Positions 2,647-47,574 of a stretch of 64,000 nt of DNA are shown here, one piece after another. The DNA is from Patescibacteria group bacterium (GTDB lineage: Bacteria > Patescibacteriota > Doudnabacteria > UBA920 > O2-02-FULL-48-8). Location of the stretch: positions 91,892 through 155,891 of the forward strand of contig DASUKB010000001.1 of the NCBI GenBank assembly GCA_036278915.1, given 5' to 3'. The notes under the pieces were generated by a model. That model saw only the letters and a list, made by a program, of their open reading frames with translations. It did not search any database and was not told the DNA's origin. Positions within the stretch are counted from its first letter, which is position 1. Each line of letters begins with the position of its first letter. Position numbers and translations under genes: made by a program.

Positions 2647-2976
2647 ATGAGATTGCTTTACTATATTCTTGGCGTGTTCACAATCCCTTGTGCTGTCGTT
2701 GTAATCAACGGGCTTGCACGCCATTTTTTCCGGCGCGAGGACATCAGCGTCGAGGACGCGGTCAGGCTCAATGTGGCCATGAGCCGCCAGATTGAGGATT
2801 TCTTGGCTGACCTTGATATGACTGTAGAGGAATGGAAAGCCACACTCCCGTATTTCGAAGCAGCCGACAGGCTCATACAAGAGACTCTGGATGAGATGCC
2901 TACCCATGTTCGGATGGTTCGGGAAATCATCTCACAGATGGAGGATGGAGAGCTGACTTATCCCACACCCGCATAG
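2647..2976 (+). CDS. Hypothetical membrane-anchored small protein (paralog 2 of a pair)
   Basis: GGAGG SD upstream of the ATG and an N-terminal TM helix. TVEEWKATLPYFEAAD aligns with TESTWREWLPVVEAAD of the 2197 gene. The same GGCACTTCG...CGAGGTGCC terminator follows both genes. Confidence 0.5.
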   Translation: MRLLYYILGVFTIPCAVVVINGLARHFFRREDISVEDAVRLNVAMSRQIEDFLADLDMTVEEWKATLPYFEAADRLIQETLDEMPTHVRMVREIISQMEDGELTYPTPA

Positions 2977-3189
2977 GGCATTCCCGACCAAGGCACTTCG
3001 CGCAAACGAGGTGCCTTTTTGTTTGACGGAGCGCAAGCAAAGTGTATAATTTAAACAAGCGGCACAAGGCCGCTATTTTCTTTTTCATAAAACCCCCCCG
3101 ATTTCGGCAAAGCCGAAATCTGCCCCCTCTTTAATAAAGAGGGGGCGGGTCAGCCCAGGGTCAGCGGGGGAGTTTAGTAGAATTAATCC

Positions 3190-3714
3190 ATGCCAGAAAT
3201 AAATTTGGAATTTAAATCCGGAAAATCTTACCGCAGACTTGCGATTCGCGTCTTCCCCAGCGGCCGGGTGGTGGTCACCAAACCGCGCAGGCTTAGCGTT
3301 TCCCAGGCGCAATTTTTCGTAGACAAAAAGATGCACTGGATCCGCAAAAAACTGGAATTCTACAAATCCGCGCACGTCTACGACTGGAAAGATTATGTGC
3401 CGGATTTGCCCAAATCCCTGGAATTCGTAAAGGGGAGGCTTGCGCACTTCAACCAGCACTACCAATTTGCCTACGGCATGGTGCGGGTAAAAAATCAGAA
3501 ATCCGTGTGGGGCACGTGCTCTGCCCGCAAAAATCTCAACTTCAATGCCAAAATAATTGCCCTGCCGCCAGAGCAGGCGGACTACATCATAGTCCACGAG
3601 CTTTGCCACACTCGCGAACTAAACCATTCGCAGAAATTTTGGGATTTGGTAGCCGAGCAAATCCCAGACTACAAACGCATCAAACAAGAGCTAAAACTAT
3701 ACTCTTTCGACTGA
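3190..3714 (+). CDS. YgjP-like/WLM (DUF45) HExxH metal-dependent hydrolase
   Basis: 174 aa. HELCH motif near the C-terminus (IIVHELCHTRELNHSQKFW) is typical of the YgjP/M48-like zinc hydrolase family. Confidence 0.65.
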   Translation: MPEINLEFKSGKSYRRLAIRVFPSGRVVVTKPRRLSVSQAQFFVDKKMHWIRKKLEFYKSAHVYDWKDYVPDLPKSLEFVKGRLAHFNQHYQFAYGMVRVKNQKSVWGTCSARKNLNFNAKIIALPPEQADYIIVHELCHTRELNHSQKFWDLVAEQIPDYKRIKQELKLYSFD

Positions 3715-3809
3715 TTTTCAGGCAGCCTGTCCGCCGAAGCTCGATAAGTTGGAAGCTTTACGCGAAGGCGGATTCGTGGCAAACTATGCCGGCAAGGAGG
3801 ATTTAGTAT

Positions 3810-4220
3810 ATGGCTACTCCGGAGTGGGATAAGCTGCTTTCTGCAGCCAACAAGGCGAGATTCAACGCCTATGCGCCTTACTCGGAATTTCTGGTGGGCG
3901 CTTCGGTACAGACAGTCGGCGGCGAAATTTTTTCCGGCTGTAACGTGGAGAACGCTTCCTACGGCCTCACCATCTGTGCCGAGCGCACGGCGCTGGTGAA
4001 AATGGTGTCCGAGATTGCCTTTCCGGTACTTGCGGCTGTCTGCGTCGTACTCAAGGGTGGCCACATGAAAGGCGGATCCCCTTGCGGCGCCTGCCGGCAG
4101 TTTATATGGGAGTTCTGCCGAGGCAACGAGGATGTGCCGGTGCTTATGACCGATCCGGATGACACCGGCAGAAGGTACAGCACTATCGGCCAACTGCTCC
4201 CCGAAGCGTTTGTGTTGTAA
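3810..4220 (+). CDS. cdd: Cytidine deaminase
   Basis: CAERTA (H/C-A-E zinc site) and PCGACRQ motifs. 136 aa, typical of homotetrameric Cdd. Confidence 0.85.
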   Translation: MATPEWDKLLSAANKARFNAYAPYSEFLVGASVQTVGGEIFSGCNVENASYGLTICAERTALVKMVSEIAFPVLAAVCVVLKGGHMKGGSPCGACRQFIWEFCRGNEDVPVLMTDPDDTGRRYSTIGQLLPEAFVL

Positions 4221-4801
4221 AACAACCCTAAGGGCACTTCGTCTCAGACGCGGTGCCTCTTTTATTTGGGTCAAAAAAATTTACAATTTATCATTTATAA
4301 TTTCTAATTTCTCATCTTTCGTCTGCACGAGGTACAAAAAAACAGTCCAGGCTTTCGCTGAACTGTTATCATGTTTTCGCAATCCTCGTTTGTTGCGCTG
4401 CGGCCGGGCAGTAGGAGGCCTTATTCACCTCAACAGGTGCTTTTTGTCACGGGACTAGGTAGTCATTCCTCGGTCCCCACGACATCCATCCGATCCACTT
4501 CCCGGATGTTTTGACAAAAATGAGCTCTAGGCGATTTTTCACGCCATACCCTCCAACCCGGCCCCAAGCGCTTTGTTCACAAATATGTTACCTCGAAATC
4601 CCAAACTCCGCAACGAAAGCTTATCAGGTTAATTCCCCACACCCGTATGGGGCGCTAAAAACGAGTTGACAGTGGATGCTTTTAGATGTAGGATCAGGGT
4701 GTTCGAAATCCACAAGGAGATCATAGCTAGGTCACGCAGACCGAGGTTATTCAGGTTCTTCCTGTGAAATCCTTGATGGGTTTCACTAAAAAGGAGGAGT
4801 T

Positions 4802-5044
4802 ATGAGTTACTCTCCGGTCTCAATATGCATCTATTGCATGTTGCGTAGATTTTGGCAGGTGGATCGTCGCGGGCTGAACAAGCTCGAGGCGATGGGCATC
4901 CTCACGGTTGCCACCATTTGTCAAAAGACTCGCCGCGACCTCAGGCAGATACGAGGTGTGGGCAATCTGACGATTGCGGAGGTTGAGCGAATACTCGCCA
5001 TCTTCAACGAGAAGTTGAAAGAAGATCTTCCACTCTTCAGATAA
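4802..5044 (+). CDS. Small helix-hairpin-helix DNA-binding protein (RNAP alpha-CTD-like)
   Basis: 80 aa. The DLRQIRGVGNLTIAEVERIL motif is HhH-like. Strong AAGGAGGAG SD. GC-rich hairpin terminator at 5056-5087. Confidence 0.45.
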   Translation: MSYSPVSICIYCMLRRFWQVDRRGLNKLEAMGILTVATICQKTRRDLRQIRGVGNLTIAEVERILAIFNEKLKEDLPLFR

Positions 5045-5159
5045 CCCTACCCGAAGGCGCTCGCCCTTTGAGCGCCTTTTTCTTTTTGTGTCAAGAGACT
5101 AGGGTCTTGACCTTAGGATTGCTCAGGTCTACGTTTTAGTTGTAATTAACAATAACCAT

Positions 5160-5720
5160 ATGAGTCCCTATAGTCCCCAATATCATAATAGTTCTTGGTT
5201 TGGTGACTGGTGGTGGGTGATAGTCCTTGTGATTGTAGGAATTGCTGCCGCAATATATTTAATTTACACGGAGCTTGGCCGACGACATTCAACACGTTTA
5301 TTTTTGCGGAACCAAAAAGTACCACAAATAATGAAAGACCTCACTCCCTTGTCCTTTGAAATTTGGGTGAGGGGATTATTTATAAATATTGGAGCAGACG
5401 CCATACTTTCCAAACGAGAATCAAAAACCGGTTTTGATCACGGGATTGATTTAGTCGCGCATTACAAAGGTCAGAAAATTTGTATTCAATGCAAGAAATA
5501 TTTCCCGAACAGATTGGTCGATGAAACAATTTTGCGAGATTTATATGGAGCAATGGAGTATGGCAAATACGACAAAGCGGTACTTGTCACCACCAGCAGT
5601 TTTACTCGCCGCGCGCGAGAGTGGGCGGAGAAGGCTGATGATATGATTTTGATAAACGGTGAACTCCTCCAAAAGATGCGAGACAATACAGGAATCCTGA
5701 TAAACCTTTTAAATAAATAA
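5160..5720 (+). CDS. Membrane-anchored Mrr_cat (restriction-endonuclease-like) domain protein
   Basis: N-terminal TM helix (WWWVIVLVIVGIAAAIYLIY). The Mrr_cat pattern follows: LSFEIW..., ...GFDHGIDLVA..., ...ICIQCKKY..., ...VLVTTSSFTRRAREWA. Located in the AT-rich island. Confidence 0.6.
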   Translation: MSPYSPQYHNSSWFGDWWWVIVLVIVGIAAAIYLIYTELGRRHSTRLFLRNQKVPQIMKDLTPLSFEIWVRGLFINIGADAILSKRESKTGFDHGIDLVAHYKGQKICIQCKKYFPNRLVDETILRDLYGAMEYGKYDKAVLVTTSSFTRRAREWAEKADDMILINGELLQKMRDNTGILINLLNK

Positions 5721-5884
5721 CGCCCCACACTCCTATGGGGCGTTAAAATTTGACAAAATGCCCATTTGGCTATAAACTTTAGGAAAGATATAATTTTTTA
5801 GAGCGGCTTTTGCCGCTTTTTTTGTCTTAATTCCATATTGCCCTTGACGTCTTTTTTTGCCTATAGTAATATTTTATTACCTAT

Positions 5885-6211
5885 ATGCAAATAAGTAAAC
5901 TAGTCAAAAATTTAAGAGACCAAAGTGAGTTCACACTCGACGTTCTAGCAAAGAAGACCGGGTTATCTGCAGGTTTTCTATCTAGATTAGAAAAGGGCAA
6001 TTACGATAACAAGAACATACAATTGGAGACAATTATACGCTTGGCGAATGGTTTGGGACAAAAGTTAAAAGATTTTTTGGACAACTTGCAGATTATAGAC
6101 CAGAATGAATTACCTCCTTTGAATCTATACCTGAGAGAAAAGTATAAGATAAAAAAAGATTCAGATATAAAAACTATCGAAGACATAATTAATAAGTTTA
6201 CTGATGAGTAA
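5885..6211 (+). CDS. XRE-family helix-turn-helix transcriptional regulator
   Basis: FTLDVLAKKTGLSAGFLSRLEKGN is a canonical Cro/C1 HTH. Overlaps the next gene by 8 nt. Confidence 0.8.
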   Translation: MQISKLVKNLRDQSEFTLDVLAKKTGLSAGFLSRLEKGNYDNKNIQLETIIRLANGLGQKLKDFLDNLQIIDQNELPPLNLYLREKYKIKKDSDIKTIEDIINKFTDE

Positions 6212-6776
6212 TTCCATAATACAAACTATAAATTCTGATGCAGAAAAAATCGCTGCAGCAATAATAGACTCGATCAATTATGGAGAAAATCCGCCACTTG
6301 GAAAGTTAATTGGTTGGTTAGAAGATAATCTACGCTCTCAGATTGATCTTAAACATATCGATTTGGGTTCTACTCCTGTTTGCGGTCTCACGTATCATGT
6401 TTTTTCAAAAGATATGTATGTGGTCCGTGTTGACAAAACCAATCCATACACAAGACAAAAATTTACGGTTGCTCACGAACTAGGACACATAATAGGAGAC
6501 TTGCAGTTAACAGCTATAGCTGGTTATTTCGACGGCGAATTGGAAAATGTAAAAAGTGGTTTGGAAAGATTTTGCAATAGATTTGCCGCAGCTTATTTAA
6601 TGCCACCAGAAATATTTAAAAGGATTTGGTCCATGTCTGGAGATAAGAATTCAACACAAATAACGAAGATGCTTTATGTTGCTTCAAGATTTGGTGTTTC
6701 CGAAGAGGCGGCCAGGTATAGAGCTATCGAACTTGGATTACTAAATTACAGTAAACGGGACAACGACCGAAATTAG
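6204..6776 (+). CDS. ImmA/IrrE-family metallopeptidase (DUF955)
   Basis: HEXXH in FTVAHELGHIIGD. Classic XRE+ImmA/IrrE pair arrangement. Confidence 0.75.
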   Translation: MSNSIIQTINSDAEKIAAAIIDSINYGENPPLGKLIGWLEDNLRSQIDLKHIDLGSTPVCGLTYHVFSKDMYVVRVDKTNPYTRQKFTVAHELGHIIGDLQLTAIAGYFDGELENVKSGLERFCNRFAAAYLMPPEIFKRIWSMSGDKNSTQITKMLYVASRFGVSEEAARYRAIELGLLNYSKRDNDRN

Positions 6777-6800
6777 CGTTGTAGAAAGGACGAAACAAAA

Positions 6801-7091
6801 ATGATCAGAATTACTTGTATCAACAAAGATAACGGTAATCATGAAAACCCACATTTGGCCATTACCTACTTAGGTTGGATAGAAGACGGTACTAATGCGG
6901 TAGGAAAATGGGCTCGATTACAGTTATATAGATGGATCAAGGAGCAAGGCGGGATTGCGTATGTTATGGATGCTATTAAGAACCGCGTATACGTAAAACC
7001 TGCCGTTTCTGTAATGGGGAATCCTTATGTTCGGACTGAATCCGATGGCAAGGTTACAAATAATTTACTCTCGTTAATTGAGTGTAAATAG
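6801..7091 (+). CDS. DUF3892 domain protein
   Basis: 96 aa. The C-terminal ...VRTESDGKVTNNLLSLIEC matches the conserved DUF3892 signature (T..D....NNLL.LP.C). Confidence 0.55.
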   Translation: MIRITCINKDNGNHENPHLAITYLGWIEDGTNAVGKWARLQLYRWIKEQGGIAYVMDAIKNRVYVKPAVSVMGNPYVRTESDGKVTNNLLSLIECK

Positions 7092-7190
7092 CAAAGACCC
7101 GAATATAATTCGGGTCCATACTCGAATTATATCACAAAAAGCGGCACTAGTGCCGCTTTTTGCTTTTTTGAATTAAAAATGTCAAAATAA

Positions 7191-8042
7191 ATGAAAGATT
7201 TAAATCAACTAGCCTTGAAATTAAAGACCAAAATTGACGCCCAGCCCTTTATAAAGTGGGCTGGCGGTAAAAGACAGCTTTTAGATGAGCTTGAGAAGCA
7301 CAAGCCTAAATGGTTCAATAGATACTTTGAACCATTTGTTGGCGGTGGAGCTTTATATTTTCGGATTCAGCCAGGGCAAAGTTTTCTGTCGGATATAAAT
7401 CCTGAATTAGTAAATCTATATTTAATAATTCAAAGTAAAGTTGATGAATTAATTTCTGAACTCAAAAAATTAAAAGTATCGGAGAAAGAATTTTATAAAA
7501 TAAGAAATATTGACAGAAAACCGGAATATAGAGAATGGAATAACATAAAAAAAGCTGCAAGATTTATATATCTAAATAAAACTTGCTTTAATGGATTGTA
7601 CAGAATGAACTCCAAAGGCCATTTTAATGTTCCTTATGGTAACCAAAACAATCCAAAAATTCTTGACGAATATAATCTCCGGCAAGTAAATAAATTATTG
7701 CAAAATTCTGATATCAAATGTCAATCCTATTCTGGAATAGAAAAAAATGTAAAGAAAGGTGACTTTGTCTACTTTGATCCTCCTTATGCTCCATTAAACA
7801 AATCTTCTTTTACGAAGTACTTTAAAGACGATTTTGATATTAAAATGCAGGTTGATCTACGAGATTTATGCGACCGTTTAGATAAAAAGGGTGTTTATTT
7901 TATGATTTCAAATTCTCATACATCCTTGATTTTTGGATTGTATAAAAACTATGATATCAAGGTAGTTGACGCAATCAGAGCTATCAACTGCAAGGGTTCT
8001 GGTAGAGGAAAAGTGAAGGAAGTCTTAATAACGAATTACTGA
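7191..8042 (+). CDS. Dam-family (D12 class) N6-adenine DNA methyltransferase
   Basis: The N-terminal SAM motif (KWAGGKRQLL, FEPFVGGGALYF) and the catalytic DPPY (VYFDPPYAP) match the alpha-group m6A MTases of the Dam/DpnM/T4Dam family. Confidence 0.85.
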   Translation: MKDLNQLALKLKTKIDAQPFIKWAGGKRQLLDELEKHKPKWFNRYFEPFVGGGALYFRIQPGQSFLSDINPELVNLYLIIQSKVDELISELKKLKVSEKEFYKIRNIDRKPEYREWNNIKKAARFIYLNKTCFNGLYRMNSKGHFNVPYGNQNNPKILDEYNLRQVNKLLQNSDIKCQSYSGIEKNVKKGDFVYFDPPYAPLNKSSFTKYFKDDFDIKMQVDLRDLCDRLDKKGVYFMISNSHTSLIFGLYKNYDIKVVDAIRAINCKGSGRGKVKEVLITNY

Positions 8043-8043
8043 A

Positions 8044-9297
8044 ATGTCCAACCGAGAACTATGGTCAAAGGTGTTTGAAATAAAAAAATTTGATCTAAAT
8101 AAAGATATTCATTTTATTACCGCAAAGGAGATAAAGCAGATCACTGGCCAAGAGCCAAGGAATATGGCTAAGATGGATAGCACTGCAGATCTGCCGTCTA
8201 TTTTCAAAAATAACGGTTATTTTTTATTACCAATTGAAAATGGGAGATATGAAATTATACGAGGTGAGGGATATCATAAATTAGAAAAAAATAAAAAGAC
8301 AGGTGAATATGATGCAGATATTAAATTTTCTATTACGACTGCTGCCAGGGGTGCAAGTGAGATGGAATATTTAGATTACTCAATTTATACAGGAGTGCTT
8401 GAGAAAATTTTGGGTCTAGGTTCCATGTACCCATCCATCCGAGGGCGTGGCCGAAGCCGAAGTTTTAATTTTTTTGTTAACCGTCATCAAGTGGATGTTT
8501 CAGGTGTCCAACTGGAAGTAGATTCAGGTTTAGAAGCGGAGCATGCCATAGTTCTTATTGAAGCCAAAATGGAGACTCCTGAGGATTTTATTGTCCGACA
8601 ACTTTATTATCCATATAGACATTTTGGCTTGATCTCGCCTTATAAAAAAATTGTCCCAACTTTTTTTACTTATGATTTAGGCAATAAAGTTTATAAATAT
8701 TGGGTTTATGATTTTAAAAACGATGTAGATTACAATTCTATATATTTAAAATCCGTCCATGCTTTTAAAATCATAAGTACCGAACCAGTGGAACTAAGCG
8801 AGCTAAAACCTTTGGAAAACACGCAGATCGCTGATATTCCACAGGCCAATGATCTTGATAAAATTATAACTATGGTTTTTGGTGTTAATGAAAAGATTGA
8901 TGATTATAAAAAAATTGCAAAATATTTTGAGTTTAATGAGCGTCAGAGTAGCTACTATAGACAGGCTGCTGAGTCTTTAGGGTTAATCTCTTCTCATAAA
9001 GGTAAGTATTATCTTACCGATAAAGGGCAGAAATTGATTAAATTGTCTACTTCTGAGAGAAATATATTTTTTATTAAGCTCATCTCGGAATACGAGCTTG
9101 TGAAAAGTAGTTTGGATATTCTTCAGCATAAGTCGGTTTTGACCGATGGAGATTTAGTTAAGCTTGTCCGCCAAAACCATAAAATAAGTGGCAGCACTGT
9201 TATCCGACGCGCTCAATCATTGAAATCTTGGTTAAATTGGATCGCTGAGAGGACAAATACGTTTATAAAAGAAGATAACAAATTTATAGTCTCATAA
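8044..9297 (+). CDS. Putative PD-(D/E)xK restriction-endonuclease-like protein with C-terminal winged-helix domain (probable partner of the Dam-family MTase)
   Basis: Start codon 1 nt after the MTase stop (translational coupling). Candidate nuclease motif ...QLEVDSG...AIVLIEAKME (D...ExK). The C-terminal ~130 aa look wHTH-like (YYRQAAESLGLISSHKGKYYLT). No family can be assigned without a search. Confidence 0.4.
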   Translation: MSNRELWSKVFEIKKFDLNKDIHFITAKEIKQITGQEPRNMAKMDSTADLPSIFKNNGYFLLPIENGRYEIIRGEGYHKLEKNKKTGEYDADIKFSITTAARGASEMEYLDYSIYTGVLEKILGLGSMYPSIRGRGRSRSFNFFVNRHQVDVSGVQLEVDSGLEAEHAIVLIEAKMETPEDFIVRQLYYPYRHFGLISPYKKIVPTFFTYDLGNKVYKYWVYDFKNDVDYNSIYLKSVHAFKIISTEPVELSELKPLENTQIADIPQANDLDKIITMVFGVNEKIDDYKKIAKYFEFNERQSSYYRQAAESLGLISSHKGKYYLTDKGQKLIKLSTSERNIFFIKLISEYELVKSSLDILQHKSVLTDGDLVKLVRQNHKISGSTVIRRAQSLKSWLNWIAERTNTFIKEDNKFIVS

Positions 9298-9319
9298 TTT
9301 TATCCAATAATTTAAATCT

Positions 9320-9649
9320 ATGTCCAATTTGATGTATTTGGTTATCGGAATTGTGGTTGGGTATGTGATTGCCAGGGTTCAGCGCAATTTTGCTGCAAGA
9401 AAAGATTCTTCGCCTGCGGCTCAGAATGATAATTCTCTCAATCAACAACGGGCCGTGGAGCATCAGGCACATCTCGATAAAATTCTTGCAAGTTTCAATT
9501 CTGGAGATGAGATTACCAATGACAAAGTCCAGGCGTTGCTTGGGGTTTCTGATACAACTACTGGTAGATATTTGGAAGAACTAGAGAAGCAGGGGAAGCT
9601 GCAACAGATCGGTACTTTGGGGAAATATGTTAAATATCGAAAAATCTAA
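9320..9649 (+). CDS. Small membrane-anchored winged-helix protein
   Basis: N-terminal TM helix (LVIGIVVGYVIARV), then a predicted helical region ending in a wHTH-like segment (ALLGVSDTTTGRYLEELEKQGKLQQIGTLGKYVKY). Confidence 0.4.
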   Translation: MSNLMYLVIGIVVGYVIARVQRNFAARKDSSPAAQNDNSLNQQRAVEHQAHLDKILASFNSGDEITNDKVQALLGVSDTTTGRYLEELEKQGKLQQIGTLGKYVKYRKI

Positions 9650-9787
9650 CGCCCCATACGGGTGTGGAGAGTTAGAAGAAAAAAATCACTGATTTAAATT
9701 ACTTTCATTTTTATTAAATATACAAATTCAATTGATGAAGCAGATTACACCACATCTTTGGTACGATAAGCAGGCAAGAGGAGTATT

Positions 9788-10288
9788 ATGAACATACTAT
9801 ATGATGTAGCGGCGTGGGGGGCATTCTTTATGGCTGTAGCCGGAGCCGGGGCGGCTCTCACCGGACTTGTATTTGTAAGTATCACTTTGAATTTACAAAA
9901 AATCGTGGGGTCCGCCCGGTTGGTGGGGCGCGCAGAAGAAGCAGTGCTGCATTTGCTCTCAACTGTTATACTTTCTCTCGTCTGTCTTATGCCTGGCATA
10001 TCGGCTAAGCTTACCGGCATATTTGTACTCATACTTATAATCCCGACGTGGATTTTCTTAACTGACCTGCACCGCCGGGCTTACGCGGAGCAAAAGCAGG
10101 AAAACATGCGCTCGTTTATGTCGCGGTTCGTGCCAGCGCAGGTGGCGCTGGTGCCGATTATAATTTCTGGCATAAGCCTTATGGCGCATGGCGGCGGCGG
10201 TTTGGGCTGGCTGGCATTTGGACTTATGGCATCGGTGACAGTGGGCGTGGTGGATGCCTGGGTTTTGACTATAGAGATCATAAGATAA
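9788..10288 (+). CDS. Hypothetical polytopic membrane protein
   Basis: 166 aa with about 5 hydrophobic segments. No recognisable family. Confidence 0.4.
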   Translation: MNILYDVAAWGAFFMAVAGAGAALTGLVFVSITLNLQKIVGSARLVGRAEEAVLHLLSTVILSLVCLMPGISAKLTGIFVLILIIPTWIFLTDLHRRAYAEQKQENMRSFMSRFVPAQVALVPIIISGISLMAHGGGGLGWLAFGLMASVTVGVVDAWVLTIEIIR

Positions 10289-10290
10289 GC

Positions 10291-10548
10291 ATGAGCCCGT
10301 TTTTTGTATACATTATCAAGTGCAAAGACGGGACGCTTTATACCGGCATCACTACGGATTTGGACCGAAGGATTGCGGAGCATAATTCGTCCAAGCTTGG
10401 CGCCAAATACACCCGCGCGCGCCGGCCCGTAAAACTGGCTTATTCCCAAAAATTCCTCACTCGCTCTGCTGCCTGCCGGCAAGAAGCGAGAATCAAGCAA
10501 TTTACGCGTGTGGAAAAGCTTGCGCTCATAAAAAAGAAAAGGCGATAA
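10291..10548 (+). CDS. GIY-YIG nuclease superfamily protein (YhbQ/UPF0213-like)
   Basis: FFVYIIKCKDGTLYTGITTDLDRRIAEHN...AKYTRARRPVKLAY is the GIY-YIG core. Confidence 0.75.
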   Translation: MSPFFVYIIKCKDGTLYTGITTDLDRRIAEHNSSKLGAKYTRARRPVKLAYSQKFLTRSAACRQEARIKQFTRVEKLALIKKKRR

Positions 10549-10620
10549 TTAGAAATTTTTATGGTTATTCGTTGACATGCGTGGTGGTTTTGCTAGAATT
10601 CTCTTTGTGAAGGAGGGTTC

Positions 10621-11660: not shown

Positions 11661-12245
11661 ATGATTACGTGGTTTAAAGTAATTGTGTTCTTGCATATAA
11701 TTTCTGCTATCATCTGGATCGGCGCGGTGATCGTGTTGGAAATTTTGGAATGGCAAACCGTGCACGCCACCAGGCGCGAGCAGATCGCATCGCAAACTCA
11801 CCGCCAGAATTGGTTTGGCAAGCGCGTGTTTGCTCCGGCATCTATAGCAACCATTGTGACTGGACTTATTGCTGTGGCTATAGGCAATCCGGCCTTTAAA
11901 CAGTTTTGGGTGATAGTGGCTTTGGTGGGCGTGGCTGTGGCTTTGGGACTTGGCGCGGGCGTCATCGGCCGCACCATGGGTAAGATTTCACAGATGCTGG
12001 CGAATCCGGCCACCACAGATGAACAAATTGAACAGCAGTTTCAGTTCCTTAAGCCGTTTACGTTTCTGGATCTGGCGGTGCTCATATATATTTTGTTTGA
12101 TATGGTTATGCGGCCGGCAACTGCAAACACCGGATTCCTGGGTGTGACTGTCGTATACTTTGCGATCGTGCTTGTATCCATCGCTCTTGCCCGCGCAAAA
12201 TCCCACAGACCAAAAATAGAATTTCACGACCAACCGCACACCTAA
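11661..12245 (+). CDS. Hypothetical integral membrane protein (DUF2269-like)
   Basis: 194 aa with 4-5 TM helices. Terminator hairpin at ~12231-12258. Confidence 0.35.
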   Translation: MITWFKVIVFLHIISAIIWIGAVIVLEILEWQTVHATRREQIASQTHRQNWFGKRVFAPASIATIVTGLIAVAIGNPAFKQFWVIVALVGVAVALGLGAGVIGRTMGKISQMLANPATTDEQIEQQFQFLKPFTFLDLAVLIYILFDMVMRPATANTGFLGVTVVYFAIVLVSIALARAKSHRPKIEFHDQPHT

Positions 12246-12321
12246 CGTGCGGTTTTTTTGACACCCTAAGCGCTTTTTATATTTGTTTGCCAAGCCCTAG
12301 CAATGGTATAATTTTATCAGT

Positions 12322-12588
12322 ATGAAGAAGAATACATTAGTTCTAATAGTTCTCATAATTCTGCCGGTTTTTTTGATAAATGTACTTCAAAACCTAAACA
12401 ATAAATATAAATTCGTATTACTAATAGTTTCTATCTTGTCCAGCTTATGGATTGTTATAAGATCAGCAAGATTTACGAATATAAGAGGTAAGATTATTTG
12501 GATGTCTGTAGGGGGAATATTAGCAGCCTTATTGATTCTATATTTTTGGATTGCTTATTCCTGGGTTCACGCTAATTTTATTTTATAA
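12322..12588 (+). CDS. Small 3-TM protein, tandem paralog 1 (type A, C-term WVHANFIL)
   Basis: MKKNTLVLIVLIILPV... Preceded by a TGgTATAAT extended -10 (12305-12312) and TTGCCA (12287-12292). No SD; likely a leaderless or short-leader mRNA. Confidence 0.55.
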   Translation: MKKNTLVLIVLIILPVFLINVLQNLNNKYKFVLLIVSILSSLWIVIRSARFTNIRGKIIWMSVGGILAALLILYFWIAYSWVHANFIL

Positions 12589-12627
12589 TTATTTGCCAAG
12601 CCCTAGCAATGGTATAATTCTATCTGT

Positions 12628-12906
12628 ATGAAGAAGAATACATTAATCCTTTTATTTTTGATCCTTCTGCCAGTGGGTTTGGGTTTTGCCTATGACGCTT
12701 CTGGTATGTATGACCATACTACTGGAACTAAATTTACGCTCTTATCCATAGCGCTACTTTCTAGCATTTATTTATTTTTTAGATCTTTATCATTAGAAAA
12801 AAGTAACGTCAAGAACTTTTGGGTTGCCATTTCATGTATCTTAATTGCTACTTTATTACTTTTCATTATGGCAGGATATTCGTTTACTAGCCTAGAAATT
12901 GGATAA
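12628..12906 (+). CDS. Small 3-TM protein, tandem paralog 2 (type B, C-term SLEIG)
   Basis: Its 60-nt upstream region is nearly identical to that of paralog 1 (TTGCCA 12593-98, TATAAT 12613-18). Body diverged. Confidence 0.55.
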   Translation: MKKNTLILLFLILLPVGLGFAYDASGMYDHTTGTKFTLLSIALLSSIYLFFRSLSLEKSNVKNFWVAISCILIATLLLFIMAGYSFTSLEIG

Positions 12907-12948
12907 ATGTAAATAATTATTTCGCCACCTAGGGTATATTCTATTGGC

Positions 12949-13221
12949 ATGAAGAAGAATATAATCATATTAATATTTCTTGTTGTGCTACCTACTGTAC
13001 TAGAATTGTTGCCGTTAAACCCAACGGATTATAGCAATAGGACCGCATACAGCCTTTTGACTGTGTCGTTGGTATCGAGCATATGGATATTTGTGCGTAC
13101 ATTAGCATATGAAAAATCTTGGACTAAGTACGCATGGGTAACTGTTTCAGTTATATCAATATTATTTTTTGTAACTTGGATATATATTGGCTACTCGCTG
13201 TCCCATATAGAAATAGGATAA
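12949..13221 (+). CDS. Small 3-TM protein, tandem paralog 3 (type B, C-term HIEIG)
   Basis: MKKNIIILIFLVVLPTV... Upstream GGTATATT -10-like box. Confidence 0.5.
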   Translation: MKKNIIILIFLVVLPTVLELLPLNPTDYSNRTAYSLLTVSLVSSIWIFVRTLAYEKSWTKYAWVTVSVISILFFVTWIYIGYSLSHIEIG

Positions 13222-13273
13222 ATTAAAAAAACAAAATAGCCGAAGGACTTTTTCTAAATTGATATCTAATATT

Positions 13274-13546
13274 ATGAAAATGAAAAGGAATATCTTGATT
13301 TTTATCTTTTTGGTAGTTCTGCCACTCGTTTTGGTAAAAATTATACCAAATCTTAGTAACGAATATAGCTTTGTTGCATTATCGATATCCATATTAGCGA
13401 GTATTTGGATAGTAATAAGGTCTATAAAATTACCAAGTTCCAAAATTAGAATTACTTGGATAATTATAGGAGCATTATTGGTAATTGTATTGAGTTTATA
13501 TTTTTGGCTTGCGTATGCTTGGGTCCATGCAGACTATATTTTATAA
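13274..13546 (+). CDS. Small 3-TM protein, tandem paralog 4 (type A, C-term WVHADYIL)
   Basis: The ORF-track start (13259) is a TTG. The ATG at 13274 (MKMKRNILIF...) aligns with the other copies. Confidence 0.5.
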   Translation: MKMKRNILIFIFLVVLPLVLVKIIPNLSNEYSFVALSISILASIWIVIRSIKLPSSKIRITWIIIGALLVIVLSLYFWLAYAWVHADYIL

Positions 13547-13624
13547 AATTTCATTAAATCATAAATAAAATAGCCATAGGGTCGGTTGTTTGACAAGCCC
13601 CAGCAATGGGTATATTTTATCGAT

Positions 13625-13873
13625 ATGAAGAAAAAGTTGATTATATTTCTAAGTTTGGTAGTACTACCCGATTTAATTGGTTATTGGTTTTATAATACAA
13701 GAATTTATACTGTAACTTCATGGGTTTCGATTCTGGCGTCACTGTGGTTGTTAGTTTTAAGTATTAAAGAGAGAAATTGGGTTCATTTTAGTATTTTTCT
13801 TTTAATCTTTGTTGCGGCAGTAATGTATTTCTTAATTGGTATATCGATTAGTCACATAGAAATAGGCGGATAA
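13625..13873 (+). CDS. Small 3-TM protein, tandem paralog 5 (type B, C-term HIEIGG)
   Basis: The ORF-track start at 13586 lies inside the promoter (TTGACA 13589-94, 16-nt spacer, TATATT 13611-16). The ATG at 13625 (MKKKLIIF...) aligns with the family. Terminator ~13896-13925. Confidence 0.5.
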   Translation: MKKKLIIFLSLVVLPDLIGYWFYNTRIYTVTSWVSILASLWLLVLSIKERNWVHFSIFLLIFVAAVMYFLIGISISHIEIGG

Positions 13874-13945
13874 AATACCGAAAACAAAAAACCAAAACAA
13901 AAATAGCCACAGGGGCTATTTTTTTCGTAATTAATTTCTAATTTT

Positions 13946-16690
13946 ATGAAACATACTTTGAAAATATTAATACCAGCAGTTTTTGTATGTTTGTTTTTTG
14001 CCCACACTGCCAACGCGCAAGTCAACTTCCGTATCCATAGCTTCGGCATGATCTTGCAGCCAAATGACGCGCCAGGCCAGTACACCTTTTTGATTAAACA
14101 AAAGATTAATGGCGAGTATGTGGACCTTATAAACAAGCCCTTGGATGTTCACCTTACTGATCTTGTAAGCTTGTTCGCATCTCTTGATAATGAAGATTAC
14201 CTTATTACGATGGATTTGCCGCCCGGTGCGGTGCTGGACAGCGTGGATTGTACGGATTCGAATTCTTTAAGTACGTTCATCCCAATCCCGGGAGGTGTAC
14301 ACGCGCTCCCGCAAGGTACGGGTAATCTTCTTTGTACTTTTACTACTTCAAAAGCTGCGACAAGCAAGACACCTGTTCTAATCGTTCCAGGAGTACTTGG
14401 AACTAATATTAAAAAAGGTGACGATGTCCTATGGCTAAATCCACTTAAGTCAATAGTGGATCCAGCTGATCATTTCATGAATTCTTTGTCTTTCAGCACT
14501 GATTTAAATCCGGTCGATCCCGATGTAACCTTTGGATCTGTCATAGGTAAGGTTGGCGTGGGTAGAATTAGTTATGATTACACTCAAAGTTTACGGCAAG
14601 AGTTGATAGACCAGCATTATACCGAAGGTGTTGATCTGTTTACCTTTCCATATGATTGGCGTTATGGCGTTTCTGGTAAAGATTCAAGTGGAGATTTTGT
14701 AAATCTCAAGGCATTTGAGGGCCAGATGAATTATATTTTGACACAGACCGGTGCGGGCAGGTCAGCTGGTAAGGTGGATGTAATTGCCCATTCAACAGGC
14801 GGTTTAATCGTTAAGTAGTATATTCAAGAACATCCGTCGGATAATCATATAGATAAGGCTGTTTTTGTGGGTACCCCAAACTTAGGCGCACCCAAAGCTT
14901 ACAAAGTTCTTATCGCTGGAGATAACTTTACTATACAGGGATTGAGCGATAGTGAGATGAAATTTTTGGCTCAAAACATGCCAGTAGTTTACGATTTAGC
15001 CGCAGACCAGAATTATTATAATCTGGCGGGTAGTCCAATGACTATCCATTTCGACCCAGCGTTAGGTAAACCAGATACTCAGGATACTCTAACCGAAATG
15101 ACTAACCAGTTAGAAAATAATGATCTAATTAACTCATTGGCGATGTCGGATAGTCAGGTCTTACATGACTCTTTGGATAATTTGGATATTTCTAGCACGA
15201 ATGTGGATACTTACAATATTATTGGTTGCAAAACAGGTACTTTTGGAAGTTTTACAGCAAATTTGGGTATAAATAATGATATAGAATCGTTTGATTTTCC
15301 TAAAATCACGCCTGGTGATGGGACGGTCCCGCTTTTGAGCGCTAAAAGTATAAATGCTTCCGATGATCATACCTTTTATGCGCCGGGGGTTCAGCATAGT
15401 AGTTTACTTTCTGCTGATGGACCAATGCAGGAGATCGTAAATATTGTAAGCGGCAGTAATTTGGATGTCGGCAAGGTTGTATCGCAATCCAGCCTTAATG
15501 ATGACCCTTCTCAATGCCAACTCAAGAAAGGGAAATTTTTGGGAATCTTCAGCCCTGTTTCTATAAGCATTACGGATCAGGAAGGGCAGATTTCGCAAGT
15601 TCTAGATGACGGCAGCATAGAAAATGACATTCCCGGAGCAGATTATGAAGTCTGGGGCGAACATAAGTATATTTATCTTCCCACAGATGCCGGCCAGCAG
15701 TATTCGATTGAACTGACAGGCACAGGAACCGGGACTTTTACTCTCAAGGATGAGGATATTGAAGATAATAATGTTACTGGAACGGAGGTGTTCAGTAATC
15801 TGCCAGTGACGACCAGCCTCAAAGGCCAGGTCGTGTTAGCTGATACCTCTTCGCTTGAATTGGATAACAATGGGGATGGTGTATTTGATCAAACACTCTT
15901 GCCGACTTCGGTTGTAAATGGCGAGCAATCCGACGATATAACTCCTCCCATTACCTCGGCGGATATTTCTGGCATCCAAGGACAGCCAAATTATTTCCGC
16001 AGTAACGTTGCTATCAAATTATCCGCGCAGGATTTTGTGGATCCGGCCAAGCCAAATCAAACCTCCGGCATGCTGAATACGCACTTCAGTTTAGACGGAT
16101 CAGAGATAGAAAATTACCAAGTACCAATTACCGTTTCTTCGGAAGGCGCGCACACAATCCGATTTTTCTCAACGGATCGGGCAGGGAACAATGAGCCCGA
16201 GCAAACAATCAACTTTGTTGTGGACAAAACTGCGCCTGAATTTAGTATCCAATTTGATCCCAGCAGCCAAGATATTAAATTTACGGGCACAGACAATTTG
16301 ACTCCGGCTGAAAATGTAAGCCTCCAGGACAATGATGATCAGATAATAATTAGCGATCAAGCCGGCAACACTTCAGAAATTATCCTGTCGAGCAAGGATC
16401 GCAAGAAAAAAATGACTGCCGAGATTGAAGGACTTTTGTATAACGGCGTGGCGGCGGATTTGAGCAAAAATAAATTTAGTTTCAGCTGGCAGTACGACAA
16501 ACAAGGCCAGCTCAAAAAACTTACGCAAAGCGCGCAGGATAAGAAAAACTTTAGAATTGATGCCACTTTCGACGGGCAGCAAACCCGTTTTCGCGGAAAT
16601 GGCAACCAAGGAAAAATAAACGAGCTGCGGCCTGGACTAGTCTCCCTAAAAATTCGCACGCAGACAGGGGATCTGATGTGGTCGTATTAA
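13946..16690 (+). pseudogene. Secreted LCAT/PGAP1-like alpha/beta-hydrolase (lipase/acyltransferase) with C-terminal beta-rich domains, interrupted by one in-frame TAG (14816-14818)
   Basis: Signal peptide MKHTLKILIPAVFVCLFFAHTANA. PVLIVPGVLGTNIKKGDDVLWLNP (the LCAT-family PVvLvPG motif). Nucleophile elbow AHSTGGLIVK, then TAG, then YIQEHP...KAVFVGTPNLGAPKAYK in the same frame. Later GDGTVPLLSAKS and HSSLLS. The two ORF-track entries (13946..14818, 14867..16690) share one frame. Confidence 0.6.
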
Positions 16691-40837: not shown

Positions 40838-40858
40838 ACTGTGGTATAATCTTTAAGT

Positions 40859-45027: not shown

Positions 45028-47574
45028 ATGTTTGAAAATAAAGAAATTGCTGATTCACAGTTTGACTTTGACCAGTTTTTCAACAAATCAAATCTCAACC
45101 CACATCTCTACGAAATTTTGCAGGCCCTTACAGACGGGGTTATAGTTCAGGATCGCATGCGAAAGGTTTTGTTTGCCAACGAAGCCGGCGCGCATATGAT
45201 GGGCTTTCGAACAGCCAATGAAATTTTGGAGCGGCCGGTTTCCAATTCCGTGGGCAAGTTTGAAATCATGGATGAAAATGGCAACGCGCTGGATCTGGAT
45301 CATCTGCCGGCGCAAGTGGTGCTAGACGGCGCCGAAATTTGCACCAAAATTATGTTTAGCAAAAACCGAGAGACAGGCGTGGGGATCTGGTCGGAAGTTA
45401 AGGCACGTGCCATCCGCGACGAGGACGGATCGGTGAAGTTTGCCGTAAGTTTGTTTCGCGACATCACCTCGGAGAAGCTAATCCAAGCCGAATACGAACG
45501 CAGCAACCGCCGGAGCCAGCACATTTTGGAAAGCATTACCGACGGCTTTTTTGCGTTTGATAAAAATTGGAATTTCACTTACATCAACAAAGCCGCGGAG
45601 CAGTTTCTGGACCGGTTGCGCGAACAACTCTTGGGTAAAAATCTTCTGGAAGAATTCAAAAATGTCGGACAGAACGAGGCATTTATAAGACTCAAAACGG
45701 CGGCGGAAAAGGGAGAAACCATCCGGTTTGAGCAGCAGTCGCGGCAAGGATTGTGGTTTGAGTTGTCGCTTTATCCGTCCCGGGACGGATCTTCGGTGTA
45801 TTTCCGCGAAATTACGGACAAGAAAAAATCCGAAGAGTATAACCTCAAGCTCCTGGCAAGCGAGGAGCGCTACCGGGCCATGATTGAGAATTCATCCGAC
45901 GGCATTGTTATGCTTAATGCCGATGGCACTATAACTTATGTTACGCACCCAATCGAACGAATTTTGGGATTTTCCGAGCAGGAAATCGTCGGTATGGTGG
46001 CTTTTGATCTCATCCACCCAGAGGATTTACCTCTGGTAATGGAAATTTTTGGCAACATGCTAAGAGCCCCGAATGCTACTAGTTCGGCGCAATTCCGCGC
46101 CCGACACAAAGATGGCACCTACCGCTGGATTGAGGGCGTGGGAACTAATCTTTTGCAGCATCCGAGCATTCAGTCTATAGTTGCCAATTTCCGCGATGTT
46201 TCGCAGCGCAAAAAAGCCGAGGACACGCTTGCTTACCATTACCAGCACGATGTACTTACGGATTTGCCCAACCGGACGTATCTGACGTCCAGGTTTGCAG
46301 AAAGCCTGCAGGAGTCCGATCGTGCGCGCAAGTCCGTGGCGCTTATGCTCATTGATTTGGACAGATTTAAGCAGATCAACGAATCTCTGGGGCACGCCCT
46401 CGGTGACCGCCTGATCCAGGAGGTAAGTTTGCGGCTTCGGGCGTGCATGAGTGAATCATGCGTTTTGGCGCGCTTGGGCGGAGATGAATTTGGCATTCTG
46501 ATCTGCAACCTGGAGCGGGAAGAGGATGAAGTGGCGAAACTTTGCAACAAGATTCTGGAGGATTTCAAGCCAGCATTTTATTTGGATGCGCACGAACTTT
46601 ATATAAGCCCCTCGATTGGCATTTCGCTGTACCCTTACGATGGCCGCGAGCCGGCTATGCTTTTCAAAAACGCAGAGACCGCGCTCTACCGCGCCAAAGA
46701 TTACGGCCGCAACACGTACCAGTTCTACACGCAAACTATGAACGCCACGGCCTACGAACGCCTGGCTATGGAGTCTAAACTTCGACATGCCATAGAGAAT
46801 AATGAGTTGGTGCTGTTTTATCAACCGCAAATTGAAGTGGTCTCGGGCAAAATTGTGGGCGCTGAAGAACTTATCCGCTGGCAGCAGCCGGACGGAAGAT
46901 TGGTGGCGCCGGATCGGTTCATACCTCTGGCCGAAGCCAATGGACTCATCGAACCCATAGGCGAATTTGTCTTGCAACAATCTTTAATCCAGGCAAAAAT
47001 TTGGCATGACGCTGGGTTTAAGCTGATTATCGCGATCAATCTTTCCGCGCGGCAGTTTAAGCAGAAAAATTTTGAAAAAATTCTCACAAATATAATTGAA
47101 GAATCGCAGCTTGATCCAAAGTTCATCGAGCTTGAGCTGACAGAAACCGTGCTGGCGGAAAACCAAGACACCGTGTTTGGAATTATGAACGGCTTGCGCG
47201 GCCGCGGCGTGCGGTTCTGCCTGGATGATTTTTCAACCGGTTACTCGTCGCTTAAATACCTCAAACAGTTTCCGGTGGACATGCTCAAAATCGAGCGCAA
47301 CTTTATGAAGGGCATCCCAGGCGACATCCAAAACGCGGCCATCGCCAAATCAATCATTACGCTTGGCCAGTCACTCGGCATGGAAGTCACGGCCGAGGGA
47401 GTGGAATCCAAACGCCAGCTGGAATTTTTGCGCGATAATCTTTGCAACCGCGCGCAAGGGTATCTTTTCAACGGCGCCATGCCGGCGCATAGCCTGTCTG
47501 AAATCCTCGGAGAACACCGGTATTTGTCCGTGGTAAAAAATTTGGACAACCAACCCAAGGCTGGACGCCCCTGA
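45028..47574 (+). CDS. Multi-PAS sensor diguanylate cyclase/phosphodiesterase (PAS-PAS-PAS-GGDEF-EAL)
   Basis: GGDEF site RLGGDEFGIL. EAL domain motifs (EELIRW, QPQIE, ELTE, DDFSTGYSSL, KIERNF). Confidence 0.85.
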   Translation: MFENKEIADSQFDFDQFFNKSNLNPHLYEILQALTDGVIVQDRMRKVLFANEAGAHMMGFRTANEILERPVSNSVGKFEIMDENGNALDLDHLPAQVVLDGAEICTKIMFSKNRETGVGIWSEVKARAIRDEDGSVKFAVSLFRDITSEKLIQAEYERSNRRSQHILESITDGFFAFDKNWNFTYINKAAEQFLDRLREQLLGKNLLEEFKNVGQNEAFIRLKTAAEKGETIRFEQQSRQGLWFELSLYPSRDGSSVYFREITDKKKSEEYNLKLLASEERYRAMIENSSDGIVMLNADGTITYVTHPIERILGFSEQEIVGMVAFDLIHPEDLPLVMEIFGNMLRAPNATSSAQFRARHKDGTYRWIEGVGTNLLQHPSIQSIVANFRDVSQRKKAEDTLAYHYQHDVLTDLPNRTYLTSRFAESLQESDRARKSVALMLIDLDRFKQINESLGHALGDRLIQEVSLRLRACMSESCVLARLGGDEFGILICNLEREEDEVAKLCNKILEDFKPAFYLDAHELYISPSIGISLYPYDGREPAMLFKNAETALYRAKDYGRNTYQFYTQTMNATAYERLAMESKLRHAIENNELVLFYQPQIEVVSGKIVGAEELIRWQQPDGRLVAPDRFIPLAEANGLIEPIGEFVLQQSLIQAKIWHDAGFKLIIAINLSARQFKQKNFEKILTNIIEESQLDPKFIELELTETVLAENQDTVFGIMNGLRGRGVRFCLDDFSTGYSSLKYLKQFPVDMLKIERNFMKGIPGDIQNAAIAKSIITLGQSLGMEVTAEGVESKRQLEFLRDNLCNRAQGYLFNGAMPAHSLSEILGEHRYLSVVKNLDNQPKAGRP

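Follow-up and report, generated by a model that had tools for sequence, protein, structure and literature searches.

The window analysed in this study, a stretch of 64,000 nucleotides (nt) at positions 91,892-155,891 of contig DASUKB010000001.1 (forward strand; coordinates below are window positions), carries five co-oriented paralogous open reading frames (ORFs) at 12322-13873 on the + strand, which encode mini-proteins of 82-92 amino acids (aa) and lie directly upstream of a gene for an LCAT-like lipase. By exploring the surroundings of related lipases, with sequences that are all metagenome-assembled, we have found that the mini-protein and the lipase form a conserved two-gene module, co-oriented and frequently translationally coupled, in which the order and the copy number vary. 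Judged from their sequences, the mini-proteins are a real family of ~85-120-aa three-helix proteins of the cytoplasmic membrane, absent from Pfam, NCBIfam and PADLOC. We propose with middling confidence that they are putative membrane-embedded immunity or self-protection proteins for the secreted phospholipase, a function suggested by their genomic context.

Conserved pairing of the mini-proteins with a secreted lipase

The genes of the array and the lipase gene that follows them are:

12322-12588, + strand: copy 1, 88 aa, three transmembrane (TM) helices, C-terminal type A (WIAYSWVHANFIL), family hidden Markov model (HMM) E-value 2e-19
12628-12906, + strand: copy 2, 92 aa, three TM helices, C-terminal type B (GYSFTSLEIG)
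12949-13221, + strand: copy 3, 90 aa, three TM helices, type B (GYSLSHIEIG)
13274-13546, + strand: copy 4, 90 aa (starting MKMKRN), three TM helices, type A (WLAYAWVHADYIL)
13625-13873, + strand: copy 5, 82 aa, three TM helices, type B (GISISHIEIGG), HMM E-value 1e-12
13946-16690, + strand: LCAT-like alpha/beta-hydrolase lipase with a Sec-type signal peptide (MKHTLKILIPAVFVCLFFAHTANA), an AHSTGG nucleophile motif and a C-terminal immunoglobulin (Ig)-like region

An earlier note on this DNA had described five tandem paralogous three-TM mini-proteins, and this description was borne out: the five proteins align over their full length, with M1, K2, L11, L14, P15 and S41 invariant, and three hydrophobic segments are present in each of them. 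The two C-terminal types, A (W.AY.WVHA.[FY]IL) and B (G[YI]S...[LI]EIG), do not alternate as the note had stated but follow the order A-B-B-A-B. In copy 4 a second ATG at 13280 offers an alternative start, giving 88 aa. A topology with the N-terminus inside and the C-terminus outside is predicted by the positive-inside rule, since the basic residues lie N-terminally and in the loop that joins helix 2 to helix 3. The AlphaFold2 model of copy 3, built on a 26-sequence family alignment, places the helices at residues 2-20, 30-52 and 58-86 (mean predicted local distance difference test score 83.8, predicted TM-score 0.69), and a Foldseek search of this model against the PDB gave only generic three-helix bundles (complex I ND4L-like chains, MIT domains), all with E >=0.85. 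Between the paralogues, the nucleotides agree most at codon position 2 (identity 0.54-0.76) and least at position 3 (0.28-0.50). The five ORFs look like real genes, because none of the five frames is broken despite the saturation of synonymous sites between paralogues.

Copy 4 is identical to the NCBI protein P0001 and copy 2 to P0002 ('hypothetical protein, Patescibacteria group bacterium'); the public protein database contained these two copies only. An independent Logan assembly (contig L001) reproduces the array region at 100% identity and was for this reason not counted as independent comparative data; its gene calls comprise copy 4 alone of the five, plus a spurious 66-aa ORF on the reverse strand. 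A metagenome scan for strain-level relatives of the window lipase returned none.

The earlier note had held that a match to a housekeeping family would weaken an immunity reading. No such match was found for the five proteins, which together with their relatives match no model at all in Pfam, NCBIfam or PADLOC and gave only sub-threshold noise from other hydrophobic proteins. A word-indexed search with the five window copies alone retrieved only the window's own proteins. A profile search of 1.84 billion representative proteins gave 12 matches including self, all full-length and of 90-101 aa, and a second, word-indexed search gave 23 family matches, the members from both searches spanning 88-109 aa. 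Of these relatives, P0003 and P0006 are encoded directly upstream of proteins of family PF02450 (LCAT), and P0013 and P0026 directly downstream. Wherever the contig sufficed, the mini-protein gene stands beside an LCAT-domain gene on the same strand, upstream of it in L002, L003, L004 and L006 and downstream in L007-L013.

In the reverse direction, lipase loci were gathered with the lipase alone as query, 79 from species-representative genomes and 79 from metagenomes, and mini-proteins were called in them with two subfamily HMMs and a demanded profile coverage of >=70%, a cut-off that mitigates the limited specificity and sensitivity of HMM detection for such short hydrophobic proteins. A family member was found in 115 of the 158 loci, and every match passing the cut-off was on the lipase strand. 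The genome loci contribute 54 of 79 (37 of 51 when both flanks are available) and the metagenome loci 61 of 79 (31 of 36 with both flanks). The gaps between mini-protein and lipase genes are mostly -60 to +60 nt, often with an overlap of a few nt (ATGA-type junctions); in the genome loci most of them fall between -34 and +60 nt. Almost all of the 79 genome loci are labelled as Patescibacteria, comprising Doudnabacteria, 'Saccharibacteria' third-party annotation (TPA) assemblies, Yanofsky-, Nomura-, Zambryski- and Komeilibacteria, and others. The link to a secreted LCAT-like lipase, drawn by the earlier note from adjacency in the window, is thus strongly supported by the presence of the family beside orthologous lipases, with variable order and copy number. 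This is the opposite of an array absent or invariant in relatives and without a secreted enzyme, which the note had named as evidence against its reading.

A second subfamily occupies the same slot, with the consensus MTKxQKIWL..F.VPEILWSP...FGFS.SLRHIGF, and the two subfamilies are homologous (hhalign probability 96%, E-value 3.7e-9). Most of the loci without a family member hold another small ORF with 3-4 TM segments (~100-130 aa) in this position. Copy number elsewhere is 1-4 and usually 1, with 2-4 copies in L017, L020, L030, L058, L066, L070 and L014; arrays often mix the two subfamilies, and the five copies of the window are the largest array seen. The larger arrays elsewhere are:

L070, ~2785-4221: four copies, subfamilies 1 and 2 alternating, upstream of the lipase
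L030, 5141-9428: four copies, one upstream and three downstream of the lipase
L058, 1746-2845: three copies
L014, 84-1409: at least three copies, at the contig end

Two tandem LCAT-like lipase genes, each followed by its own mini-protein gene, occur in L071, L073/L172/L173, L109, L144 and L165; these sets are duplicated lipase/partner pairs. Lipase homologues were also seen in bins labelled as other than Patescibacteria, namely an Acidobacteriota metagenome-assembled genome (MAG; L036), where no mini-protein was found, and two 'Gammaproteobacteria' TPA MAGs, of which L057 has a family member directly downstream of the lipase and L068 a small three-TM ORF in the same place that both HMMs missed. 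The bins of L057 and L068 may be mislabelled or contaminated.

The paralogues of the window are 30-49% identical pairwise, as distant from each other as from the partners in other genomes. The closest relative of copy 1 is copy 4 and vice versa (49%). Copy 3 has its best match in P0003 of the syntenic soil locus L002 (48%), above any paralogue in the array, and copy 5, the most divergent of the five, has its best matches all outside it (P0011, P0021, P0018 and P0013). C-termini of type A recur in P0006 (L004) and those of type B in P0003 and P0004. The array would therefore be a collection of old or fast-diverging lineages and not a burst of recent duplicates, as suggested by copies that match relatives outside it as well as they match each other. 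Its G+C content (GC) is 29-34%, compared with ~49% in the flanks. Recent horizontal transfer was rejected as the cause: the family is AT-rich in every genome (GC 0.22-0.40 versus locus means of 0.33-0.50), and for this reason the low GC of the array is taken as compositional and not as evidence of transfer; it fits a composition rich in Ile, Leu and Phe.

Regarding the lipase, the description of the downstream gene as LCAT-like and of secreted type in the earlier note stands, but an in-frame TAG at 14816-14818, seven codons past the AHSTGG catalytic-serine motif, had been overlooked. The orthologues conserve the Ser (AHS[TM]GG), the Asp (GDGTVP) and the His and have signal peptides, and the window lipase also carries GDGTVP and the conserved His. 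It is ~47% identical to the intact orthologues of L002, L004 and L008 and 33% to that of L011. These intact orthologues score 65-99 bits against PF02450, whose gathering score is 21, whereas the halves of the window gene, split by the TAG, reach 18.9 and 18.1 bits. The nearest solved structures are human LCAT and LPLA2 (lysosomal phospholipase A2), with E ~3e-10. As in LCAT and LPLA2, the family score and the Ser/Asp/His residues are shared by the orthologues of the window lipase; unlike them, the bacterial proteins, which at 680-1174 aa are far larger, carry adhesin-like or beta-helix domains at the N-terminus and Ig-like domains at the C-terminus.

The 607 codons after the TAG are open and still 47% identical to the orthologues, in which the TAG column reads Q/Q/K/E. 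On the simplest reading the TAG is a very recent nonsense mutation, or a variant or assembly error, and the window lipase as written would be inactive. Recoding or readthrough was rejected as the default explanation, given this column and the use of TAG as a normal stop codon here, where it terminates 8 of the 44 genes of the window. A lipase homologue split into two ORF segments was also seen in the genome loci L033, L060 and L067, and a disrupted lipase may therefore not be peculiar to the window.

Expression signals and history of the array

The promoter-like and terminator elements of the array are:

12232-12254, + strand: intrinsic terminator of the upstream DUF2269 gene, hairpin AACCGCAC...GTGCGGTT followed by a run of seven T, -12.1 kcal/mol, z-score -4.25
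12287-12312, + strand: promoter-like module P1, TTGCCA, 14-nt spacer, extended -10 TGgTATAAT ending 9 nt before the ATG
12593-12618, + strand: promoter-like module P2, core identical to P1
12920-12940, + strand: degenerate promoter module before copy 3, TTTCGCCACCTAGGGTATATT, with an internal deletion relative to P1, P2 and P5
13227-13273, + strand: decayed terminator remnant and copy of the lipase leader, AAAATAGCCGAAGG, hairpin of -0.1 kcal/mol that is no longer stable
13568-13591, + strand: weak terminator-like hairpin after copy 4, AAAAUAGCC...GGUUGUUU, -7.2 kcal/mol, z-score -2.5
13590-13618, + strand: promoter-like module P5, TTGACA, 15 nt to TATATT (or 17 nt to TATTTT), -10 ending 8 nt before the ATG
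13899-13923, + strand: intact intrinsic terminator closing the array, AAAAATAGCCACAGGGGCTATTTTTTT, -10.6 kcal/mol, z-score -3.7

The array is thus bracketed by two strong intrinsic terminators (12232-12254 and 13899-13923), the first of which marks its 5' boundary. The element TTG[AC]CAAGCCC[CT]AGCAATGG, of 20 nt, precedes copies 1, 2 and 5 and is found nowhere else in the 64 kb; these three occurrences compare with 0.01 expected by chance. In L002, L004, L005 and L006, where the gene is single-copy, a terminator comes before it, followed by TTGACAA-N-AGCAA-N-GGTATA at 23-27 nt from the ATG. By sequence this element is orthologous to P1, P2 and P5, and its presence before those genes suggests that the three modules are real promoters. 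Independent promoters are thus plausible for copies 1, 2 and 5. For the other two copies, the earlier claim that each gene has its own promoter does not hold: the module of copy 3 is degenerate, with a deletion, and copy 4 lacks the element and is preceded instead by a copy of the lipase leader.

Of the details given before, the extended -10 TGgTATAAT of copies 1 and 2 was located at 12304-12312 and 12610-12618. The TTGACA and TATATT boxes of copy 5 were recovered too, with a spacer of 15 nt in place of the 16 nt reported (14 nt for copies 1 and 2), and the distance from the end of the -10 boxes to the ATG is 8-9 nt and not 10-15 nt. Since these boxes end so close to the start codon, the mRNAs of copies 1, 2 and 5 would be leaderless or near-leaderless. 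The lack of a Shine-Dalgarno (SD) sequence was likewise correct for the array, although it is a property of the whole genome and not of the array itself, as even a lenient SD-like pattern matches only 10 of the 44 genes of the window. At least one unrelated gene has a like layout, with an extended -10 TGGTATAAT at 40842-40850, only 8 nt from its ATG at 40859; the region upstream of 16763 is a further example. Furthermore, TGNTATAAT occurs nine times in the window, versus 2.1 expected. The organism may commonly express its genes from leaderless or near-leaderless mRNAs. The possibility that the conserved intergenic module contains a structured RNA was considered and rejected, the fold being no better than that of shuffled sequences (z-score -0.19) and the element being absent from other loci.

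The motif AAAATAGCC.AGG that had been noticed after copies 3, 4 and 5 is indeed present in all three places. It corresponds to the 5' arm and loop of the terminator at 13899-13923, of which a weaker hairpin remains after copy 4 and a decayed one after copy 3.

The analysis of the similarities between units points to two kinds of event. The 5' modules of units 1 and 2 (12275-12339 and 12581-12645), which were thought to be homogenised, are identical at 61 of 65 positions, compared with 46% for the remainder of the two genes (binomial P ~1.6e-16). A recent gene-conversion tract would explain this better than selection alone, because the identity extends over the promoter including its spacer and over the first 6 codons including their synonymous sites, whereas the orthologous promoters in other genomes keep only TTGACAA, AGCAA and GGTATA. 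Weak homology (~13 of 21 nt) was also seen between 12262-12282 and 12568-12588, reaching the last codons of copy 1; the former segment may be the relic of a type A gene end once located upstream of copy 1, a similarity too weak to call. On the other hand, the junction between copies 3 and 4 (13227-13279) is a copy of that between copy 5 and the lipase (13894-13951), and it includes the ATGAAA start context of the lipase, which accounts for the extra 'MK' of copy 4. This junction copy probably represents the footprint of a segmental tandem duplication. We propose that the array would have grown by segmental tandem duplication of a unit made of type A gene, type B gene, terminator and lipase leader, the lipase leader and extra ATGAAA of copy 4 being its footprint, and that afterwards a recent conversion tract of ~65-110 nt would have made copies 1 and 2 uniform in their promoter and first codons.

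Proposed self-protection against the lipase and its alternatives

In the proposed mechanism the mini-proteins would reside in the membrane of the producer itself, with the N-terminus in and the C-terminus out, and would shield this membrane from a secreted, membrane-active lipase, either the cell's own or that of neighbouring cells on the same host. Divergent copies would broaden the protection, for instance against the lipases of other episymbionts. The array of the window may then consist of orphan immunity genes beside a disrupted lipase, expressed from promoters of their own and independently of it; the lipase would carry a recent nonsense codon of CAG-to-TAG type, while the array persists. 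Two properties of immunity modules are found here, namely a conserved, adjacent and co-oriented gene, mostly within ~60 nt of the lipase in the 115 of 158 loci, and a variable copy number with diverged tandem paralogues (1-4 copies elsewhere and five in the window, at 30-49% identity). A dedicated delivery system of type VI (T6SS), type VII (T7SS) or contact-dependent inhibition (CDI) was not found; the neighbourhoods contain no secretion-system genes, and the lipases have Sec-type signal peptides only. It is conceivable, if somewhat doubtful, that the proposal extends widely over Patescibacteria, that is, the candidate phyla radiation (CPR). A Sec-secreted LCAT/LPLA2-like phospholipase would there attack host membranes or harvest their lipids, and a three-helix immunity family would accompany it, with divergent arrays kept after loss of the lipase against the lipases of competing episymbionts.

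The module resembles several known systems. In the T7SS loci of Gram-positive bacteria, immunity genes form strings of non-identical members, whose evolution proceeds by recombination between conserved blocks (PMC9484751). Like the strings of EsaG, TsaI and TipC (Garrett et al. 2022, PMC9484751), the present array comprises diverged tandem paralogues beside the gene of a secreted toxin or enzyme, with conserved blocks at gene ends that promote recombination or conversion and a copy number that varies between genomes; TsaI itself is a polytopic membrane protein countering a membrane-acting toxin (PMC9484751). Unlike these strings, the genes described here belong to Patescibacteria, have no sequence similarity to them and accompany an ordinary Sec signal peptide in place of a T7SS or other dedicated secretion system, and their immunity function is a proposal.

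Pairs of a lipase with cognate protective genes are known in Tle1-5/Tli of the T6SS and in the staphylococcal TslA/TilA, where Tli and TilA are soluble periplasmic proteins or lipoproteins. As in our module, a GxSxG-type alpha/beta-hydrolase lipase is encoded there beside one or several protective genes, sometimes in tandem. In contrast, the partners found here are three-TM mini-proteins, the lipase belongs to the LCAT/LPLA2 family (PF02450) and not to Tle, and there is no T6SS or T7SS context; the mini-proteins, as three-helix integral membrane proteins without a Pfam or NCBIfam match, do not belong to the Tli family. The immunity proteins of pore-forming colicins are small inner-membrane proteins with 3-4 TM segments. 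They are comparable as very small polytopic proteins acting in the membrane against a membrane-targeting secreted protein encoded next door, but their partner is a pore-former and not an enzyme, and the genes described here are chromosomal and not plasmid-borne, belong to another phylum and have no sequence similarity to them. With no Pfam or NCBIfam match above noise to the colicin immunity families, the general architecture alone is shared. Finally, orphan immunity clusters, known from acquired interbacterial defence, are arrays of immunity genes without the cognate effector. The window likewise has a divergent array of protective type beside a disrupted effector gene, with individual copies that most resemble the lipase partners of other lineages. 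It differs in that no mobile-element hallmarks flank the array, that the array lies at the ancestral lipase locus (synteny with L002) and that the protective function is proposed from context. Thus, the new elements are the family of proteins itself, the fact that it is paired with a lipase of the LCAT family, the delivery by Sec only and the phylum, whereas the array of protective genes beside an enzyme or toxin is a known kind.

Several points weigh against immunity. The mini-proteins have no similarity in sequence or fold to any known immunity protein (no Foldseek match to the PDB below E = 0.8), and very little of them would protrude from the membrane, with ~10-25 residues in a loop and ~5-10 in a tail. 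Tli and TilA, by contrast, which are known to confer immunity to lipases, are soluble or lipoprotein domains. In about one in four lipase loci no member of the two modelled subfamilies was detected. That the lipase is toxic to bacterial membranes is an assumption based on its family, its neutralisation by the mini-proteins is something we infer, and the TAG could be a minority variant or an error, the data being all metagenome-assembled. Furthermore, the tight coupling and the conserved pairing fit an obligate accessory factor equally well.

Such a factor would be a membrane anchor, docking site, export helper or activator, on which the secreted lipase depends for its retention or activation at the cell surface of Patescibacteria, with the extra copies as drifting duplicates. 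The conserved, co-oriented and often overlapping genes suggest stoichiometric co-expression, the signal peptide of the lipases is cleavable and no other anchor is obvious in them, and the outward-facing motifs GNWLEDY (loop 1) and GYS.S.[FI]G[FG] (C-terminal tail) could form a docking surface. However, up to five very divergent paralogues beside a single lipase are hard to reconcile with a 1:1 helper. In the window, moreover, the independent promoters and the terminator between array and lipase uncouple their expression, and five intact frames coexist with a nonsense codon in the lipase. The mini-proteins are also not similar to the Lif-type foldases or to any Pfam family: Lif proteins, of ~300 aa, join one N-terminal anchor to a large periplasmic domain, and the proteins of the window, with 82-92 aa, three helices and almost no extramembrane domain, correspond neither to them nor to another known lipase helper. 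We consider an accessory role rather unlikely on this balance.

The lipase might instead harvest or transacylate host lipids, with the three-TM protein taking up, flipping or accepting the lysolipid or fatty-acid product. The near restriction of the module to Patescibacteria would suit this explanation, as would the acyltransferase and phospholipase A2 activities of LCAT and LPLA2, the nearest solved relatives of the lipase. CPR bacteria are reported to be putative symbionts that cannot synthesise their membrane lipids and in which lysolipids are enriched (PMC7242380 / 10.1101/465690), which points in the same direction. Nevertheless, a three-helix protein of 90 aa is unlike the known lipid transporters or flippases and the idea is without structural support. 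From a housekeeping function in uptake one would expect slow evolution and one stable copy, and not arrays of paralogues at 30-49% identity in variable order, and in the window an intact array stands beside a disrupted lipase. A role in lipid scavenging thus appears improbable to us.

A horizontally acquired low-GC islet of small membrane proteins (e.g. holin-like or bacteriocin-related) lying by chance beside the lipase is very improbable: an array of 29-34% GC between flanks of ~49%, bracketed by terminators, would fit it, but the family has low GC everywhere (0.22-0.40 versus 0.33-0.50), the adjacency recurs in more than 100 independent loci, and neither a holin, PADLOC or other Pfam match for the five proteins nor a lysin, integrase or phage gene beside the array was found, so that the conserved pairing already largely refutes it. 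The surface variation suggested in the earlier note finds no support either, since invertible or switching elements are absent and each protein would have very little exposed sequence.

The ultra-small Patescibacteria are reportedly unable to make membrane lipids of their own. As to how they acquire lipids and interact with or damage their hosts, the module provides a testable candidate for host-membrane attack or lipid harvesting combined with self-protection, as a secreted LCAT-like phospholipase with a dedicated and fast-evolving membrane partner is kept across many CPR lineages. In the literature on Patescibacteria or CPR with lipase, LCAT or phospholipase, no description of a mini-protein/lipase cassette was found. 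The mini-protein family is systematically under-called by gene callers, and the module was probably overlooked because it has no curated model in Pfam, NCBIfam or PADLOC and the gene callers often miss its small genes. The five-copy array beside a nonsense-mutated lipase may serve as a natural experiment on the maintenance of orphan protective genes. If the immunity-array proposal is true, this would be the first conflict system of effector-immunity type defined for the CPR.

Other features of the window

A low-GC island (32-40% GC) was observed at ~5000-10550. Its genes are:

5160-5720: Mrr-like nuclease
~5885-6776: helix-turn-helix regulator and M78 (ImmA/IrrE-type) peptidase, and a DUF3892 protein in the same island
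7191-8042: Dam-family methyltransferase
8044-9297: DUF6996/DUF6997/DUF7226 protein, and a GIY-YIG protein in the same island

This segment looks like a defence or restriction island. Finally, an 848-aa PAS-GGDEF-EAL protein of cyclic-di-GMP turnover is encoded at 45028-47574, a notable presence in a genome that is expected to be reduced.

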